A stretch of DNA of 63,674 bases, from the NCBI RefSeq assembly GCF_004010195.1, contig NC_057749.1, forward strand, positions 19,360,432 through 19,424,105, given 5' to 3'. How positions within the stretch are numbered: position 1 is the stretch's first letter; each line of letters opens with the position of its first letter. A program made the position numbers and the translations under genes. The stretch comes from Chiloscyllium plagiosum. Lineage: Eukaryota. The notes under the pieces were generated by a model. The model searched no databases. It was not told where the DNA came from and worked only from the letters and a program-made list of their open reading frames with translations. This document shows positions 11,487-49,529 of this stretch, one piece after another.

Positions 11487-11931
11487 CCATCGCCAGACCA
11501 CAACAAAACGACGGTTGGAGGAAGAGCGCCTCATCTTCCGCCTAGGAACCCTCCAACCACAAGGGATGAACTCGGATTTCACCAGTTTCCTCATTTTCCC
11601 TCCCCCCACCTTGTCTCAGTCAAATCCATCGAACTCAGCACTGCCTTCCTAACCTGCAATCTTCTTCCTGATCTCTCCGCCCCTACCCCAGTCTGACCTA
11701 TCACCCTCACCTTAACCTCTTTCCACCTATCACATTTCCGACGCCCCTCCCCCAAGTCCCTCCTCCCTACCTTTTATCTTAGCCTGCTGGACAAACTTTC
11801 CTCATTCCTGAAGAAGGGTTTATGCCCGAAACGTCGATTCTCCTGTTCCCTGGATGCTGCCTGACCTGCTGCGCTTTTCCAGCAACACATTTTCAGCTCT
11901 GATCTCTAGCATCTGCAGACCTCACTTTCTC
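11487..11931 (+). mobile_element. 5'-truncated Penelope element 3' end with hammerhead-like core at 11808-11835
   Basis: Encodes the RRLEEERLIFRLGTLQPQGMN C-terminus; perfect 15-bp TSD CTATAAATAACTCCT at 11472-11486 and 11932-11946. Confidence 0.9.
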
Positions 11932-31415: not shown

Positions 31416-34047
31416 TGTTATGAAGGTGTAGAAGTATCCTGTACCTTTTAAGAGAGTTAAAAAGCTAGCAGAACTACCTGGCAGCACCAAGTGTTCTGAG
31501 CAAGATAGAATGTAATCTTTTGGTTCAGCAGTTATAGTAGCTGGTTGCTTGGAGACAAAAACGAATTTGAATGTGGCGAATCGTTTAAATTATACTCCAC
31601 TCCAATCCAGTTTGAATTTAGTATATTGATGATATTAAAAGCCAATGACACAATCCGATGCTTTGAGGTTTAAGACCGGGAGAAGTTGAATAGTTGAGAG
31701 AGAACTGCCAAGCCACCAACATATGCAGACTGCCCGCAGAATAGCTCTCTTAAAGGTACCTTTATCGATCAGTGACCTGTGAAACAGAAATTCCTAAGAA
31801 GAAAAGAAGACCGAGAAAGATATAAAGAGAAGATTTGTCAGCAGGCTGGTTTTGAAATTTGAATATTTGATAAATCTTAATCAGGGGTTTTATCAGTCTA
31901 GTATTGTGGAAGGGGAAGGTAAAAAATAGGTTAGAGAAAGGAGTCGTAAATAGTTGTTAGGGAGGGAGATTATTCTCTGTTATACTTTAAGAAATAAAGT
32001 TGTTAATTTTTACTTTAAATAGTGACACAGAACATAGAACAGTACAGCACAGAATAGGCCCTTCAGCCCACGATGTTGTGCCGACCACTGATCCTCATGT
32101 ATGCACCCTCGAATTTCTGTGACCATATGTATGTCGAGGAGTCTCTTAAATGTCCCCAATGACCTTGCTTGCACAACTGCTGCTGGCAACGCATTCCATG
32201 CTCTCTCAACACTCTGTGTAAAGAACCCGCCTCTGACATCCCCTCTATACTTTCCTCCAACCAGCTTAAAACTATGACCCCTCGTGTTAGTTATTTCTGC
32301 CCTGGGAAATAGTCTCTGGCTATCGACTCTATCTATGCCTCTCATTACCTTGTATACCTCAATTAGGTCCCCTCTTCTCCTCCTTTTCTCCAATGAAAAA
32401 AGTCCGAGCTCAGTCAACCTCTCTTCATAAGATAANNNNNNNNNNNNNNNNNNNNNNNNNNNNNNNNNNNNNNNNNNNNNNNNNNNNNNNNNNNNNNNNN
32501 NNNNNNNNNNNNNNNNNNNNNNNNNNNNNNNNNNNNNNNNNNNNNNNNNNNNNNNNNNNNNNNNNNNNNNNNNNNNNNNNNNNNNNNNNNNNNNNNNNNN
32601 NNNNNNNNNNNNNNNNNNNNNNNNNNNNNNNNNNNNNNNNNNNNNNNNNNNNNNNNNNNNNNNNNNNNNNNNNNNNNNNNNNNNNNNNNNNNNNNNNNNN
32701 NNNNNNNNNNNNNNNNNNNNNNNNNNNNNNNNNNNNNNNNNNNNNNNNNNNNNNNNNNNNNNNNNNNNNNNNNNNNNNNNNNNNNNNNNNNNNNNNNNNN
32801 NNNNNNNNNNNNNNNNNNNNNNNNNNNNNNNNNNNNNNNNNNNNNNNNNNNNNNNNNNNNNNNNNNNNNNNNNNNNNNNNNNNNNNNNNNNNNNNNNNNN
32901 NNNNNNNNNNNNNNNNNNNNNNNNNNNNNNNNNNNNNNNNNNNNNNNNNNNNNNNNNNNNNNNNNNNNNNNNNNNNNNNNNNNNNNNNNNNNNNNNNNNN
33001 NNNNNNNNNNNNNNNNNNNNNNNNNNNNNNNNNNNNNNNNNNNNNNNNNNNNNNNNNNNNNNNNNNNNNNNNNNNNNNNNNNNNNNNNNNNNNNNNNNNN
33101 NNNNNNNNNNNNNNNNNNNNNNNNNNNNNNNNNNNNNNNNNNNNNNNNNNNNNNNNNNNNNNNNNNNNNNNNNNNNNNNNNNNNNNNNNNNNNNNNNNNN
33201 NNNNNNNNNNNNNNNNNNNNNNNNNNNNNNNNNNNNNNNNNNNNNNNNNNNNNNNNNNNNNNNNNNNNNNNNNNNNNNNNNNNNNNNNNNNNNNNNNNNN
33301 NNNNNNNNNNNNNNNNNNNNNNNNNNNNNNNNNNNNNNNNNNNNNNNNNNNNNNNCCATTTTTGTGCTCCTTCCTCGCCTGCCTGTAATCCTCTAGAGCT
33401 GAGCTTGACCCTAGCTTCCTCCACCTTATGTAAGCTACCTTTTTGCTTTTGAGGAGAAGCTCCACCGCTCTCGTCATCCAAGGTTCCTTTATCTTACCAC
33501 TTCTTGCCTGTCTCAGAGGGACATATTTATTCATCACTCGCAACAACTGTTCCTTAAACAGTCTCCACATGTCTATCGTGCCCTTTCCATGGAACAATTG
33601 CTCCCAATCCATGCTTCCTAACTCATGTCTAATCGCATCATAGTTTCCTCTTCCCCAGTTAAATATCCTCCCATTTTGCCTAATCTTCTCCTTCTCCATA
33701 GCTATGTAGAATGTGAGGCAGTTGTGGTCACTATCACCAAAATGCTCTCCCACCACAAGATCTGATACCTGCCCCGGCTCATTGCCGAGCACCGTCTAGA
33801 ATGGCCTCTCCCCTCGTCGGCCTGTCAACGTACTGAGTTAGGAACCCTCCTGAACACACCTTAGAAAAACAGCTCCATTCAAATCTTCTGCTCGAAGGAG
33901 GTTCCAATCAATATTTGGAAAGTTAAAGTCCCCCATTACAACAACCCTACTACGTCCACACTTTTCCACACTTATCCCACACATTTGGGATAGTTCTTGG
34001 CCTCTCAAATTTTCACAGATTCCAGTGATGCTCCCTGTGTCATAACA
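31416..34047 (+). mobile_element. Solo LTR (about 670 bp) interrupted by a CR1 insertion
   Basis: Inverted termini TGTTATGA...TCATAACA; flanks ACCT/AGCT (4-bp TSD with one mismatch); internal AATAAA at 31993-31998; splits an older LINE 3' fragment (about 31280-31415 and 34048-34210). Confidence 0.7.
32024..33989 (-). mobile_element. 5'-truncated CR1 LINE spanning the N gap 32436-33355
   Basis: GDFNFP, LGNEPGQV..GEHFGDSDHN, EPWMT, LSYEERL..LGLFSLEKRR; ATAGT duplicated at both ends. Confidence 0.9.
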
Positions 34048-40800: not shown

Positions 40801-41480
40801 TAAGAATCACACAACATCACGTTATAGTCCGACAGGTTTACTTGGAAGGATTAGCTTTTGGAGCGCTGCTCCTTCATCAGATGGTTGTGGAGTCTAAGAT
40901 CGTAGGACACAGAATTTATAGCAAAAGTGATGTAACTGAAATTATACATCGAAAATGACCAGGATTGTTTGTTAAGTCTCTCATCTTTTAGAATGTGTAA
41001 ATTTGTACTTATGAAATGACATTTTATTTTGCTAAAAACTACAAGAGTCCATGTAAATTTCTGTAAATCCCTTTTTTTAGATTAGATCAGTCTGAACATT
41101 GGGTCACAGACAGTCTCACACCTTCAGTGCAATATCTGAGTCAACATGGCACCTATTGTTAAATTTCACTTGAGAATGTAACTTAAAGAAAGTTCTGCAA
41201 TTTACATATGAAAGAATTGAAACCAACATACCCATTCTAAAAGTTGAGAGACTTAACACCTCAATCCAGGTCTTTTTTCAATATATATTTGCAGTTACAT
41301 CACACTGTAAATTTTTGCTATAAATTCTGTGTCCTATGATCTTAGACTCCACAACCACCTGATGGAAGGAGCAGCGCTCCGACAGCTAGTGCTTCCAATT
41401 AAACCTGTTGGATTATAACCTGGTGTTGTGTGATTTTTAACTTTATACACCCCAGTCCAACACTGGCACCTCCAAATCAT
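40801..41480. mobile_element. Long inverted-arm Penelope-derived element (family B)
   Basis: About 200-bp inverted arms, each with CTGATG(G)AAGGAGC..GCTCC..AGCTA; terminus ccccagtccaacactggcacctccaaatca shared with the copies at 29640 and 47414. Confidence 0.8.
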
Positions 41481-45600: not shown

Positions 45601-47413
45601 TAATAAAATGTGAAATAGGATTGATAAGCAACCTCATATCAGTATCCTCAACTTAAATGTGGACAATTATACATATGAAGAAAGAGTTGTCTAAAGCTAA
45701 CTATGAAATTAGGGGAAGGTTAGTGGAAAAACAATGCAGACCTTTAAATGAAATGTTCATAATGGTCAGCAAAAATTATGGTCAAAAAAGGATCTGACGA
45801 GAAGGATGAACCAGCTGTGGTTAACAAAAATGGTTAAGGAGAGTAACCAATCAAACACAAGTGCATACAAAGTGATGGAAAACAGTGGTAGGCCAGAAGA
45901 TTGGGAATTTATTTTTTTTAGGAACCAGCAGTGAATAACTAAAAAGATACCAAAACACAAATTGATTAGGAAAGTAAATTGGCAAGAAATATGAAAATAA
46001 ATTGTGTTTCTACAAGTATATAAAACAAGCAGCTAAAATGAATGTTGGACCCTTGGAGGATGGGACTGGGGAATGGATAGTGAGGGGAAAACAGGAAAAT
46101 GGCAGTAATTTAAACTGATATTTGCACTGTTTTGAATGGTGGTGGACTCTTATAAACACCCCAATGCACTGATGGGAGGAAAGATTTTGTAGCAGCCTCG
46201 GTCACAAAGGGCAAAGTATTTTGAAACTAAGGGGATTGAAAGGAGGAGTGTTGCCACAACTTAATGGCCTACAGCCACAAGCTTTAAAAGGACATAACTG
46301 TAGGGATTGGCCAAAATATTCTACAACTCATTGGATTCTAGGAGGGGTTCTAGACTATTGGAAAACTACAAATGTAATGCTCCCACTCAAGAAGTGAAAG
46401 AACAGAAAGCAGTGCCAGTTAGACTGTTCAGAGTCAGATGTACAGCATGGAAACAGAGCCTTCAGTGCAACCCATCTATGCCAACCAGACATCACCAACC
46501 CAATGTAGTCCCACCTGCCCACATCCCTCCAAACCCTTCCTGTTCAGATGTCCATCCAGCTGCCTTCTGAATGTTGCAATTGTACCACCCTCTACCACTT
46601 CCTCTGGCAGCCCATTCCACATGTGCATCACCCTCTACATGAAAATGTTGCCCCTTAGGTCTCTTATTTTCCCCCTCGCATCACCCCTGGGAAAAGAATC
46701 ATCTATTTACCCCATTCATGCCCCTCATAAACCTCTATAGGGTCATCCCTCAGTCTCCAACGCTCCAGGGAAAACAGTCACAGCCTATTCAACCTCTCCT
46801 TAAAGCTCAAATCGTCCAACCCTGGTAACATCCTTGTAAACCTTTTCTGAATCCTTTCAAGTTTCACAACATCCTTCTGATAGGAGGGAGACTAGAATTG
46901 AACAAAATATTCTAAAAGTGGCCTAACCAATGTCCTGTACAGCTGCAACATGTCCTCCCAACTCACGTACTCAATACTCTGACCAATAAAGGTAAGCATA
47001 CCAAACACCTTCTTCATTATCCTATCTACCTGCAACTCTACTTCCAAAGAGCTATGACCCTGCACTCCAATGTCTCTTTGTTCAGCAATACTCCCTAGGA
47101 TCATTAGCAGCAAGAATAGGCTATTCAGTAACTCAAACCTACCTTACTCTTCTTTAAGATAATGCTGGATTTGCCCAAGGTCTCAACTCTTCTTCCACAC
47201 CAGCTCCACGTAATTCCTAACTCCTTAATGTTTCTTAAACATTGTGATATAGCCCACAACTCTGAGGTAAAACATTCCAGACATTCACTCCACAGGAAAT
47301 CTTTCACATCTCAGTTACAAAATAAGGGACATGCATTTAAAACTATATTACTTAATTCAAGATTTCCCCAAGAGTAGAAATAAATGCTAATGAATAAAGG
47401 CTTCATTTGTTTA

Positions 47414-47616
47414 TGATTTGGAGATGCCGGTGTTGGACTGGGGTGTACAAAGTTAAGAATCACAACACCAGGTTATAGTCCAACAGGTTTAATTGGAAGC
47501 ACACTAGCTTTCGGAGCGACGCTCCTTCATCACCTGATGAAGGAGCGTCGCTCTGAAAGCTAGTGTGCTTCCAATTAAACCTGTTGGACTATAACCTGGT
47601 GTTGTGTGATTCTTAA
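47414..47616. mobile_element. Near-perfect palindromic Penelope-derived element (family B)
   Basis: Perfect 13-bp TSD CTTCATTTGTTTA at 47401-47413 and 47617-47629; arms of about 82 bp around a 2-3 nt centre. Confidence 0.92.
47531..47565 (+). ncRNA. Minimal type I hammerhead ribozyme motif
   Basis: CAC-CUGAUGA-A-GGAGC(GUC)GCUCU-GAAA-GC-UA-GUG: stem I CAC/GUG, stem II, conserved core, palindromic AGCU in place of helix III, and a CUA cleavage triplet. Confidence 0.65.
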
Positions 47617-49529
47617 CTTCATTTGTTTAGTCATTCTTGTCAATTCAGTCCCTTCATCCCAGGAATGAGCCTAGCTAATCTCTTTTGAACCACCTCCAAT
47701 ACTATTATATCTTAAAAACGAAGATCAAAACTCTAGACAACTCAATGTGTAGCCTCTCCAACATCTGGCATAATTATAATATTCCAAATTTTGTTTCACA
47801 GACAAAAAAAACACCTAGATGCCTCCATGTTAAACTTTCTTTTTCAAAGAAGTCTTTCCATTAAATAATGGTTTGGCTTTGATGTTTCCTGCTTTCTGGC
47901 AAATATTTGCCCATTCACTCAACCTCTCTCTCCCTTTGCAGATACCTTACATCCTCACCACAACATGCCCTCCTTCCTATTTTTGTCATGGACCAATTTG
48001 GTCAGATCTTAGAGTCTACTCCCTCAAAATTATTAATGTTGATAGATATTGATACAGTACTAAATAGTTGAGGCCCAAGAATGGATTTTTGTGGCACTCT
48101 ACTAGTTACACCTATCTAAGCTGAAAAAGACCAATTACCTTTGATCCACTGTCCATGCTGATACAGAATACAAAAATTTTAATAGCAGACCATCTGGAAA
48201 ATAGCAACAGGGTTGGACATATGAAAAGAAAGTTCTGCTTGATGATTGCTAGCAGAATTGAGTACAAGAGTGATAAGGATGTTTCTGACTTGGACAGAGT
48301 GCAAAGGTTTACCAAGTTTGCCAGGACTAACAAATGAAAACAGCCTGGATTAGATTAAGAATATATTAACTGGAGTTTAGAAAAATGGGGTGTGTGTGTT
48401 TGTGCACGTGCGTTTGTGGGGGTAGGGGAGTCACATAGAACTCCATGAACTTCTAACAGACCTAGACAGGGCAAATGCAGGAAGGACGTTTCTGAAGACT
48501 GGGGAGTTCAGAACTAGGGTTCACAGTCTAAGGTAAAGGAATGAGCCATTTTGAACAGAGAAATTCCTTCACTTAACAGAGTGATATATCGGTGAAACTT
48601 TCTTCTACAGAAATCAGGCTAAAATGTTAAAGTCTAATGATGCTCAGAAAAATATAATGACAGAATGGGTATCCCAAAGAGAAATGATCAACAGGGAAAT
48701 GTCACTATCTTCACTTGAAGGTATTTAATCTAAAGGTACAGATCACCTTGAAAAGTTGAATAAAGTAGCATGAATTTTTGAATAGCCAGAAAATGAGTAA
48801 AATCAGGAGTGTCAATCTGCACAATTCTTGATAAGGTTTCAAGCAACATATTGAGATTCAATGAAACAAATCAATGGGACAAATTTATTTTCAGAAATTT
48901 TAATCTTTGACCCTAAATTCCTTTAACTTCAAGGACTTGCTCCTGTATTTTGCAACCAAGGAGTTCGGTTCACATCATCTTGTACCACCAAGTGCTTTTG
49001 AAGGACTTCCCAACTGATGACAGGAGAATTCTTCTTGAAACGTTGTAACCATCACCATTTTGGGTCAAGTATAGCAAATGATTGCAGCACTGTATCACAA
49101 TGTGACTACAAACAGGATATTAAACATGAGGGGGGAACTTGACAGTCGTTGATCTTCAGATTGGAACATCTCAAATGGTCCTGGTGTCCAACGCACAACC
49201 AGTCACTATTTATCAAATACAATGAGTTACCTTTTCATCAACCAAAAATGATGAATATGTGTCTCAAGTATGTAAATAATCAAGTACTGACACTACTTTA
49301 TTCACTTCTGTATGAGATGTGTGCCTTGTCACTACTGAGAGAAAGTATTATGAGTCTCACAAATGTCTAACACTAGCCGATAATAGTTCGGATAGTTGTA
49401 CCATTCAATAATATCTGGAAGTTATGCATTTGCTTCTTTAGAATTATAATCAAAAATTGTTTCCCCAAACCACCAGGCACCAACCACTATGCTAGAACCA
49501 CACTGGGGAATTATCTTTGTTTGTAAATG

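Follow-up and report, generated by a model that had tools for sequence, protein, structure and literature searches.

In the genome of the shark Chiloscyllium plagiosum, a 203-bp insert reads as a near-perfect palindrome that carries hammerhead ribozyme motifs head-to-head, and this raises the question of what kind of element made it, how the palindrome arose, and whether the ribozyme works in this setting. We analyzed the whole stretch of DNA around it, hereafter the window (63,674 nucleotides; contig NC_057749.1, positions 19,360,432 to 19,424,105 of the forward strand; coordinates below count from its first letter), together with copies retrieved from the 3.56-Gb genome assembly. The insert is very probably a minimal Penelope-like element (PLE) insertion, consisting of two 5′-truncated 3′ UTR copies placed head-to-head with their 3′ ends outward, the hammerhead motif being inherited.

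The insert occupies 47414–47616 and, as the first-pass annotation of this DNA had described, has a perfect 13-bp target-site duplication (TSD) and near-perfect inverted arms, here about 83 bp long. Its features are as follows.

47401–47413, no strand: left TSD copy, CTTCATTTGTTTA, 100% identical to the right copy.
47414–47452, sense on the − strand: PLE "tail," a 39-nt piece of the 3′ UTR bounded by the proximal and the distal start site of reverse transcription, present on the left arm only.
47453–47532, sense on the − strand: left arm, PLE 3′ UTR from the hammerhead box (GGUGAUGA, with G at core position 3) to the proximal site.
47502–47536, − strand: mirror motif, CAG GUGAUGA A GGAGC GUC GCUCC GAA AGCU A GUG, with G replacing C3.
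47531–47565, + strand: minimal hammerhead, CAC (helix I), CUGAUGA, bulged A, GGAGC-GUC-GCUCU (helix II), GAA, AGCU palindrome, A17, GUG; predicted cut after 47562.
47533–47534, no strand: CC, central dinucleotide of the palindrome (flip/flop position).
47535–47616, sense on the + strand: right arm, the same PLE 3′ UTR segment without the tail, ending at the proximal reverse-transcription start site (..GATTCTTAA).
47617–47629, no strand: right TSD copy, CTTCATTTGTTTA, 100% identical to the left copy.

Aligned with each other, the arms match over 47461–47532/47535–47606 (72 nt, 99%) and over 47450–47464/47605–47619 (15 nt, 100%) with a 2-nt indel between, and the 39-nt tail is the nonpalindromic portion of the insert. 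Because the right arm shares its final 3 nt (CTT) with the TSD, the duplication can be read as 10 to 13 bp. Folded as RNA, the + strand forms a single hairpin of −157.5 kcal/mol (z = −24.7 versus 200 shuffles).

The element had also been placed between the 3′ ends of two convergent genes, and for this we obtained no support, as open reading frames (ORFs) at 43.5 to 51.5 kb do not exceed 122 aa. The sole ORF recognizable by eye in that interval is a LINE-like reverse transcriptase (RT) fragment at 46892–47143 (−). A Pfam scan of the 19 window ORFs of at least 130 aa, all of which are more than about 8 kb away from the element, gave matches to LINE RT (RVT_1) or endonuclease exclusively. The RT fragment, a C-terminal ORF, is contained in a very high-copy repeat at 46800–47128, just upstream of the element, whose depth range resembled that of the element in all three contig runs. 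Farther away, positions 32001–34000 have a G+C content of 24.7% and open frames of more than 300 aa in all six frames (32010–33795); this is presumably an AT-rich simple or satellite repeat.

The source of the arms was evident from longer copies of the same sequence. Judged by sequence similarity, each arm in all probability represents the final ~85 to 125 nt of a 3′ UTR belonging to a very abundant shark PLE of the RT plus GIY-YIG type, and the two are joined at the 5′ border of that UTR's hammerhead box. The left unit also forms the end of longer copies, several of which extend upstream into the end of an ORF. This 76-aa ORF end, which lies beside the family UTR, had 33 database relatives, with 64 to 98% identity to shark proteins, several of them carrying RVT_1, which is present in the full-length relatives; the closest named relatives were from Chiloscyllium punctatum (95 to 98% identity), followed by Heptranchias, Scyliorhinus, Mustelus, and Hemiscyllium. 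Pfam identified GIY-YIG on the matching C terminus of one full-length homologue (24.7 bits versus a cut-off of 22.6) and named nothing, GIY-YIG included, on the 76-aa fragment of the window genome itself. In a language-model atlas, the full-length homologue was placed among RT/GIY-YIG/HTH_animal clusters. Because this ORF end, with its RT and GIY-YIG relatives, precedes the same UTR in longer copies, we regard the arms as the sense 3′ UTR end of an EN+ PLE.

On its sense strand the parent reads ..CAAUCAC CUGAUGA A GGAGC GUC GCUCC GAA AGCU A GUGUGCUUCC.., with ~50 nt to ..GAUUUUUAAC and ~40 more to ..CUCCRAAUCAUG. The motif lay 315 to 696 nt downstream of the ORF stop, on the same strand, at 10 of the 15 loci with a located stop (the starting locus is among the 10), and the proximal site ended 83 nt after the motif start in all 10 ORF-linked copies. 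These matches uphold the link to Penelope elements proposed from the motif; of the two origins considered earlier for the termini, a DNA transposon or a Penelope 3′ end, the ends agree with the latter, since they coincide with the start sites in the PLE 3′ UTR. When the genome was searched with the 76 aa, 26,213 first-look candidates appeared. The same 76 aa were also found at 72 to 96% identity in several annotated shark host proteins (PPP1R12A-like, XRCC5, septin 5a, and GPCR-like), where they are probably transposon sequence taken into gene models.

Searching the genome with the 203 bp yielded 2,703 first-look candidates, the 40 best scored of which were all 96 to 100% identical over essentially the full length, in keeping with the fairly young multicopy family that had been suspected. 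TSDs of 8 to 16 nt abutted the element in 28 of 30 aligned sister copies, with 13 nt in 12 and 11 to 15 nt in 24 of the 30; the unrelated PLE described below likewise has a 13-bp duplication. Left ends began with TCATGATT.., ATGATT.., TGATT.., or ATT.., and right ends ran to ..TTTTTAA plus 0 to 6 further nt; overall, the ends varied by 1 to 7 nt, and both often shared microhomology with the target. Variable ends combined with TSDs of varying length are as expected for target-primed reverse transcription and not for cut-and-paste transposition. The proposal that the family is retrotransposed is thus sustained, while the notion of a separate MITE-like family is better replaced by that of a minimal PLE insertion, that is, an inverted 5′-truncated pair plus one tail. 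Among 27 longer family copies, the tail was present in 11 and the sequence stopped at the proximal site in 16. Among 40 copies sampled by the central 26-mer only, 39 had exactly one tail, none had two, and one had none. Contig runs X1, X15, and X17 showed massive repeat depth with breaks at repeat edges, and no contig spanning an empty site was seen among the joints listed. At 40801–41479 the window holds another inverted pair from this PLE-derived family, of greater age; its tail-bearing copy, sense on the + strand, ends at 41479 (89% to the young unit), its tail-less partner begins at 40801 (84%), and its hammerhead boxes have decayed (CUGAUGGA..GACA and ..CAAAA).

We then considered the center of the palindrome. 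The same 26-nt junction occurred at 167 places, and among the 50 listed, 48 read CC/GG and 2 were one step away. With the tail set on the left (n = 40), the center was GG in 23 copies (plus one AG) and CC in 14 (plus one CT), a ratio of 24:15, and the two isomers had no other majority difference among the 42 of 50 copies that were usable. The 2-nt indel was found in both arms of 6 copies and in one arm of 2, both isomers occurred with and without it, and 8 private substitutions were symmetric between the arms. Other head-to-head pairs had different junctions and one tail each, and in one of these (L098) the arms stem from two different variants. Precisely where the junction falls, the parent UTR carries ATCA-GG-TGAT, an imperfect palindrome.

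Homology to the PLE UTR, TSDs, variable ends, and a one-tail rule are all observed in these copies; for the origin of the palindrome we infer, at about an even chance, a double-priming route, which is our preferred reading. The PLE protein would nick both target strands ~13 bp apart, and reverse transcription would be primed on both nicked strands, as the anole PLE does in vitro. One arm would start at the distal site and so carry the 39-nt tail, and the other would start at the proximal site. The two cDNAs would then join at ATCA-GG-TGAT, a stretch shared in part with helix I and C3 of the hammerhead, and the GG/GG mismatch left after cDNA annealing could be resolved either way, giving two mirror isomers. 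A putative RNA 5′ end at the junction would explain why it is constant. Recurrent formation is suggested because other one-tailed junctions exist, L098 mixes variants, and both isomers occur in both indel variants. That 39 of 40 copies have exactly one tail is unexpected under independent use of the start sites, so some coupling must be assumed.

The identical junction at 167 places and the variants shared by the arms can also be explained by a palindromic master or by one arm being copied from the other. An ancestral inverted PLE stub might have been copied whole by the PLE machinery as a nonautonomous, MITE-looking retroelement, with arm-to-arm recombination or gene conversion after insertion producing the flip/flop and the symmetry. 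We consider this a substantial possibility, short of an even chance. It would account well for the recurrent junction, for the 96 to 100% full-length identity of the 40 best copies, and for the shared variants, the 8 private symmetric ones included, as arm-to-arm conversion would yield them. However, both outer ends match the two RT start sites of the parent, whereas in a copy of one RNA one of the two ends should be a ragged 5′ end; a faithful copy would keep the orientation of the center with respect to the tail, but the two isomers are both common, otherwise indistinguishable, and present in both indel variants; and head-to-head pairs with other junctions exist.

The double-priming route can be given a more specific form, which we offer tentatively and regard as rather unlikely. 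A dimeric PLE complex would prime both nicked strands from one RNA or RNA pair, always from the distal site on one of them and from the proximal site on its partner, which would yield the one-tail rule (39 of 40), and the mini-elements would be in vivo footprints of integration. If so, the hammerhead region would have a role distinct from self-cleavage, marking where cDNAs preferentially end or pair, and the hundreds of 205-bp products would be a natural record of the still undefined second-strand step of PLEs. Two further copies differ at the junction or center. An older palindromic copy at L010:2667–2810 has a different junction, and its short arm ends 3 to 5 nt past the predicted cleavage site (..GCTAGGG, then the TSD); as a single case, this may be coincidence. 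A long nonpalindromic copy at L002:2373–2500 reads CACCTG versus CAGGTG in 27 other long copies, a flipped center that fits none of the models considered here.

As for the hammerhead motif, the 32-nt string CTGATGAAGGAGCGTCGCTCTGAAAGCTAGTG was found with 0 mismatches at 47534–47565 (+), directly preceded by CAC at 47531–47533, and its mirror at 47502–47533 (−) differed at 2 positions, the first C being G and the T ahead of GAAA being C; in 100 shuffles, no string of this type was expected by chance. The core boxes CUGANGA and GAAA plus U16.1-H17 were correctly spaced over 47534–47562 (+) in a descriptor that also matched sister copies. The bulged A after A9 is at 47541 and was A in 58 of 61 descriptor matches, the other 3 having C or T, and the palindromic AGCU at 47558–47561 replaces helix III. 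Helix I, CAC/GUG, had 3 contiguous base pairs in 79 of 90 family motifs, 6 in 2, and fewer than 3 in 9. The family consensus keeps G10.1-C11.1 as the pair closing helix II (GGAGC...GCUCC), and position 11.1 in the + arm of the window copy is U, a CpG-to-TpG change at 47554, which gives G·U instead. The complete minimal core reported for the + arm and the mirror with G in place of the first core C on the − arm were thereby recovered, the former with this G·U qualification, and the cut predicted after GCUA at 47562 agrees with the position given before.

The folding models suggest that the hammerhead in this hairpin is most likely an inherited passenger and not an active ribozyme. In a 52-nt piece, the hammerhead-like fold reached −6.9 kcal/mol versus −16.7 kcal/mol for a local alternative, and the motif would be inert here because its two copies lie on opposite strands and the −157.5 kcal/mol hairpin buries the core. 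A working ribozyme cassette, in which the hammerhead self-cleaves transcripts either by itself or through dimerization of the two motifs, would make sense of the intact core boxes on the + arm and of a motif class whose conservation at the master level spans subfamilies that have 14 different loop-2 sequences between them. It would also have precedents in published PLE minimal hammerheads, which cleave weakly as dimers (PMC4209133; dimer cleavage is likewise attributed to PLE hammerheads by Lunse et al. 2016/17, as relayed through PMC6765202), and in the anole PLE hammerhead, which cleaves with protein help (PMC11167929). We nevertheless judge it improbable, since one RNA holds one sense copy already paired to antisense and favors the folds given above over the hammerhead-like one. 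Moreover, C3 is G in the mirror copy, a substitution that abolished cleavage in the anole hammerhead, and hammerhead cleavage is unnecessary for PLE insertion in vitro (both PMC11167929). Two expectations voiced at first sight are accordingly unsupported or overstated. Head-to-head motifs could hardly dimerize, because no single transcript has two sense copies and each sense box pairs with its own antisense; and delivery of a ribozyme motif from either strand says too much, as only one arm has an intact CUGAUGA, and that arm has G·U at 10.1-11.1.

The distribution of the motif beyond this locus was examined with a hammerhead descriptor of our own, run over 260,258 bases of retrieved sequence with 20 shuffles as the control. 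It gave 61 matches and 0 in the shuffles; 49 belonged to this PLE family and 10 to a second one, whose motif is CUGA(U/A)GA A GGGC NNNN GCCC GAA ACGU C, CpG-decayed copies included. The second family has the same architecture with other helix II pairs (GGGC/GCCC) and ACGU with an inverted 15.2-16.2 pair. The descriptor search proposed in the first-pass annotation thus located the motif in sister copies and in a second PLE family with differing helix II pairs. Rfam did not: at gathering thresholds it gave 0 matches in the whole window, and its hammerhead models (Hammerhead_1, _3, _II, HH9, and HH10) gave no hammerhead match over 47300–47750 at an E value of ≤10. This is a weak test, because in a control on the motif of the second PLE (L031:3118–3460), a copy with CAAAA for CGAAA, no hammerhead was reported either, so that these models cover forms lacking helix III poorly. 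At the same E value, the matches over 47300–47750 were 11 to microRNA precursors and a weak one to a plastid 3′ UTR, none of which reached threshold. A microRNA precursor (MIR860, MIR845_1, bantam, mir-143, and others) was rejected, as scores stayed below gathering thresholds (69.6 bits versus 89 and 50.5 versus 81) and reflect generic matches of long-hairpin models.

Such silence of the hammerhead models, and the fact that the box adjoins the symmetry center, might be taken to mean that CUGAUGA...GAAA is a by-product of that center (TCATCA/TGATGA) and no hammerhead relic. The parent copies already contradict such a chance resemblance by their sequence, however, and we hold it very improbable: nonpalindromic parents bear the full CAC-CUGAUGA...GCUA-GUG on the sense strand, the exact motif string with any loop 2 occurs 16,625 times genome-wide versus 0 for a reversed control, and the descriptor matches include an independent PLE family with compensating changes. 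Within-family conservation (core, 0.65%, versus flank, 3.2% mismatches) was discarded as evidence, because inserted copies decay neutrally and the sample was biased; of the 42 copies compared, 20 had been picked by an exact junction pattern overlapping the core, and 8 of 50 had been dropped by a regular expression.

The second, unrelated PLE is nested in a long copy of the first family at L031:412–3340 (equal to L002 from about 2712 onward), where it is flanked by a 13-bp TSD, ATATGTTGAAGGT; it has an ORF plus its own minimal hammerhead ~95 nt from its 3′ end, and Pfam found nothing on its 138-aa N terminus. Two more hammerhead boxes of the second family lie in the window at 11808 (+) and 58936 (−), reading CUGAAGA/CUGAUGA A GGGY....GCCY GAA AYRU C GAWUCUCC, and a descriptor match at 49014 (+) fits neither PLE family. 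In a subfamily represented by L101:100–700, two tandem copies have a perfect 6-bp helix I (AACCAC/GUGGUU), an indication that the hammerhead was more canonical in older lineages.

Minimal hammerheads with a short helix I have been described in metazoan PLEs by Cervera and de la Peña 2014 (PMC4209133), who also noted pairs of motifs on opposite strands. By sequence comparison, the shark family motif appears to have all four features listed there, with G10.1-C11.1 lost in the + arm of the window copy. It shares with the PLE class the core boxes, the bulged A after A9, and a palindromic 15.1-16.1 in place of helix III, so that the earlier assignment to PLE-type hammerheads with a 4-nt palindrome in this position is consistent with the published list. 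As in other PLEs, the motif lies on the sense strand in a noncoding flank of an RT plus GIY-YIG element (the 10 of 15 loci above). In contrast to the Schistosoma families, which have a helix II of 7 to 8 bp, helix II here has 5 bp with a 3-nt loop; helix I has 3 bp, versus 4 to 5 bp in Schistosoma and 2 in D. virilis (PMC4209133). H17 is A (GCUA) and not the usual C, and the host is a shark, none being named in the main text of PMC4209133.

The insertion itself resembles known PLE insertions. Craig et al. 2021 (PMC8557442) describe PLEs with a high level of 5′ truncation, an adjoining inverted 5′-truncated copy, and a 30- to 40-bp tail that is often confined to one end, and Frangieh et al. 2024 (PMC11167929) reported that with the anole PLE protein, cleavage and extension take place on both target strands and that reverse transcription starts at two adjacent internal sites, the interval being the tail. 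Like this canonical insertion, the shark element has inverted copies that meet head-to-head and point their 3′ ends outward, a 39-nt tail at one end only, two alternative 3′ ends ~40 nt apart, and joins that are microhomology free or have short microhomology. It differs in that both copies are cut to ~85 to 125 nt, leaving only the hammerhead-to-tail segment, and in that one junction recurs at 167 places as two mirror isomers. Animal non-LTR retrozymes (Cervera and de la Peña 2020, PMC7229834; Li et al. 2026, 10.64898/2026.07.22.740005) are likewise short nonautonomous PLE-related sequences with type I hammerheads; unlike the present inverted pair, which has no tandem repeat, they are direct tandem repeats in which sense hammerheads can dimerize and release circular RNA.

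MITEs are similar in size, long inverted arms, flanking direct repeats, and potential hairpin RNA. We nonetheless rejected a class II MITE, a DNA transposon derivative with TIRs and an incidental hammerhead-like string, and give it next to no credence, because the inverted repeat stops short of the left terminus (39 unpaired nt, and so no TIR at that end), the ends vary, TSD length ranges over 8 to 16 nt, and the arms derive from the sense 3′ UTR of an RT plus GIY-YIG retroelement. A literature search found no description of this shark element; it may appear in PMC4209133 (supplementary Fig. S1 to S7) or in figures of the 2026 preprint, in which one chondrichthyan was sampled.

The element is of a known kind, a PLE with a minimal hammerhead, and no new kind of ribozyme or mobile element. 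The new details are the constant junction at 167 places, the 24:15 flip/flop of the central dinucleotide, and the arm-symmetric variants. For shark repeat annotation, it is relevant that a MITE-looking hairpin can be a pure retroelement product. The PLE family is enormous in this shark genome, with 26,213 first-look ORF-end candidates and 16,625 exact matches to the hammerhead box, and its AGCU/A17 variant brings a shark lineage into the class of PLE minimal hammerheads. Integration of PLEs is poorly understood, and the recurrent junction, the strict asymmetry of the tail, and the flip/flop of the center provide cheap natural data on it, with a bearing on both-strand extension and on the use of two RT start sites.
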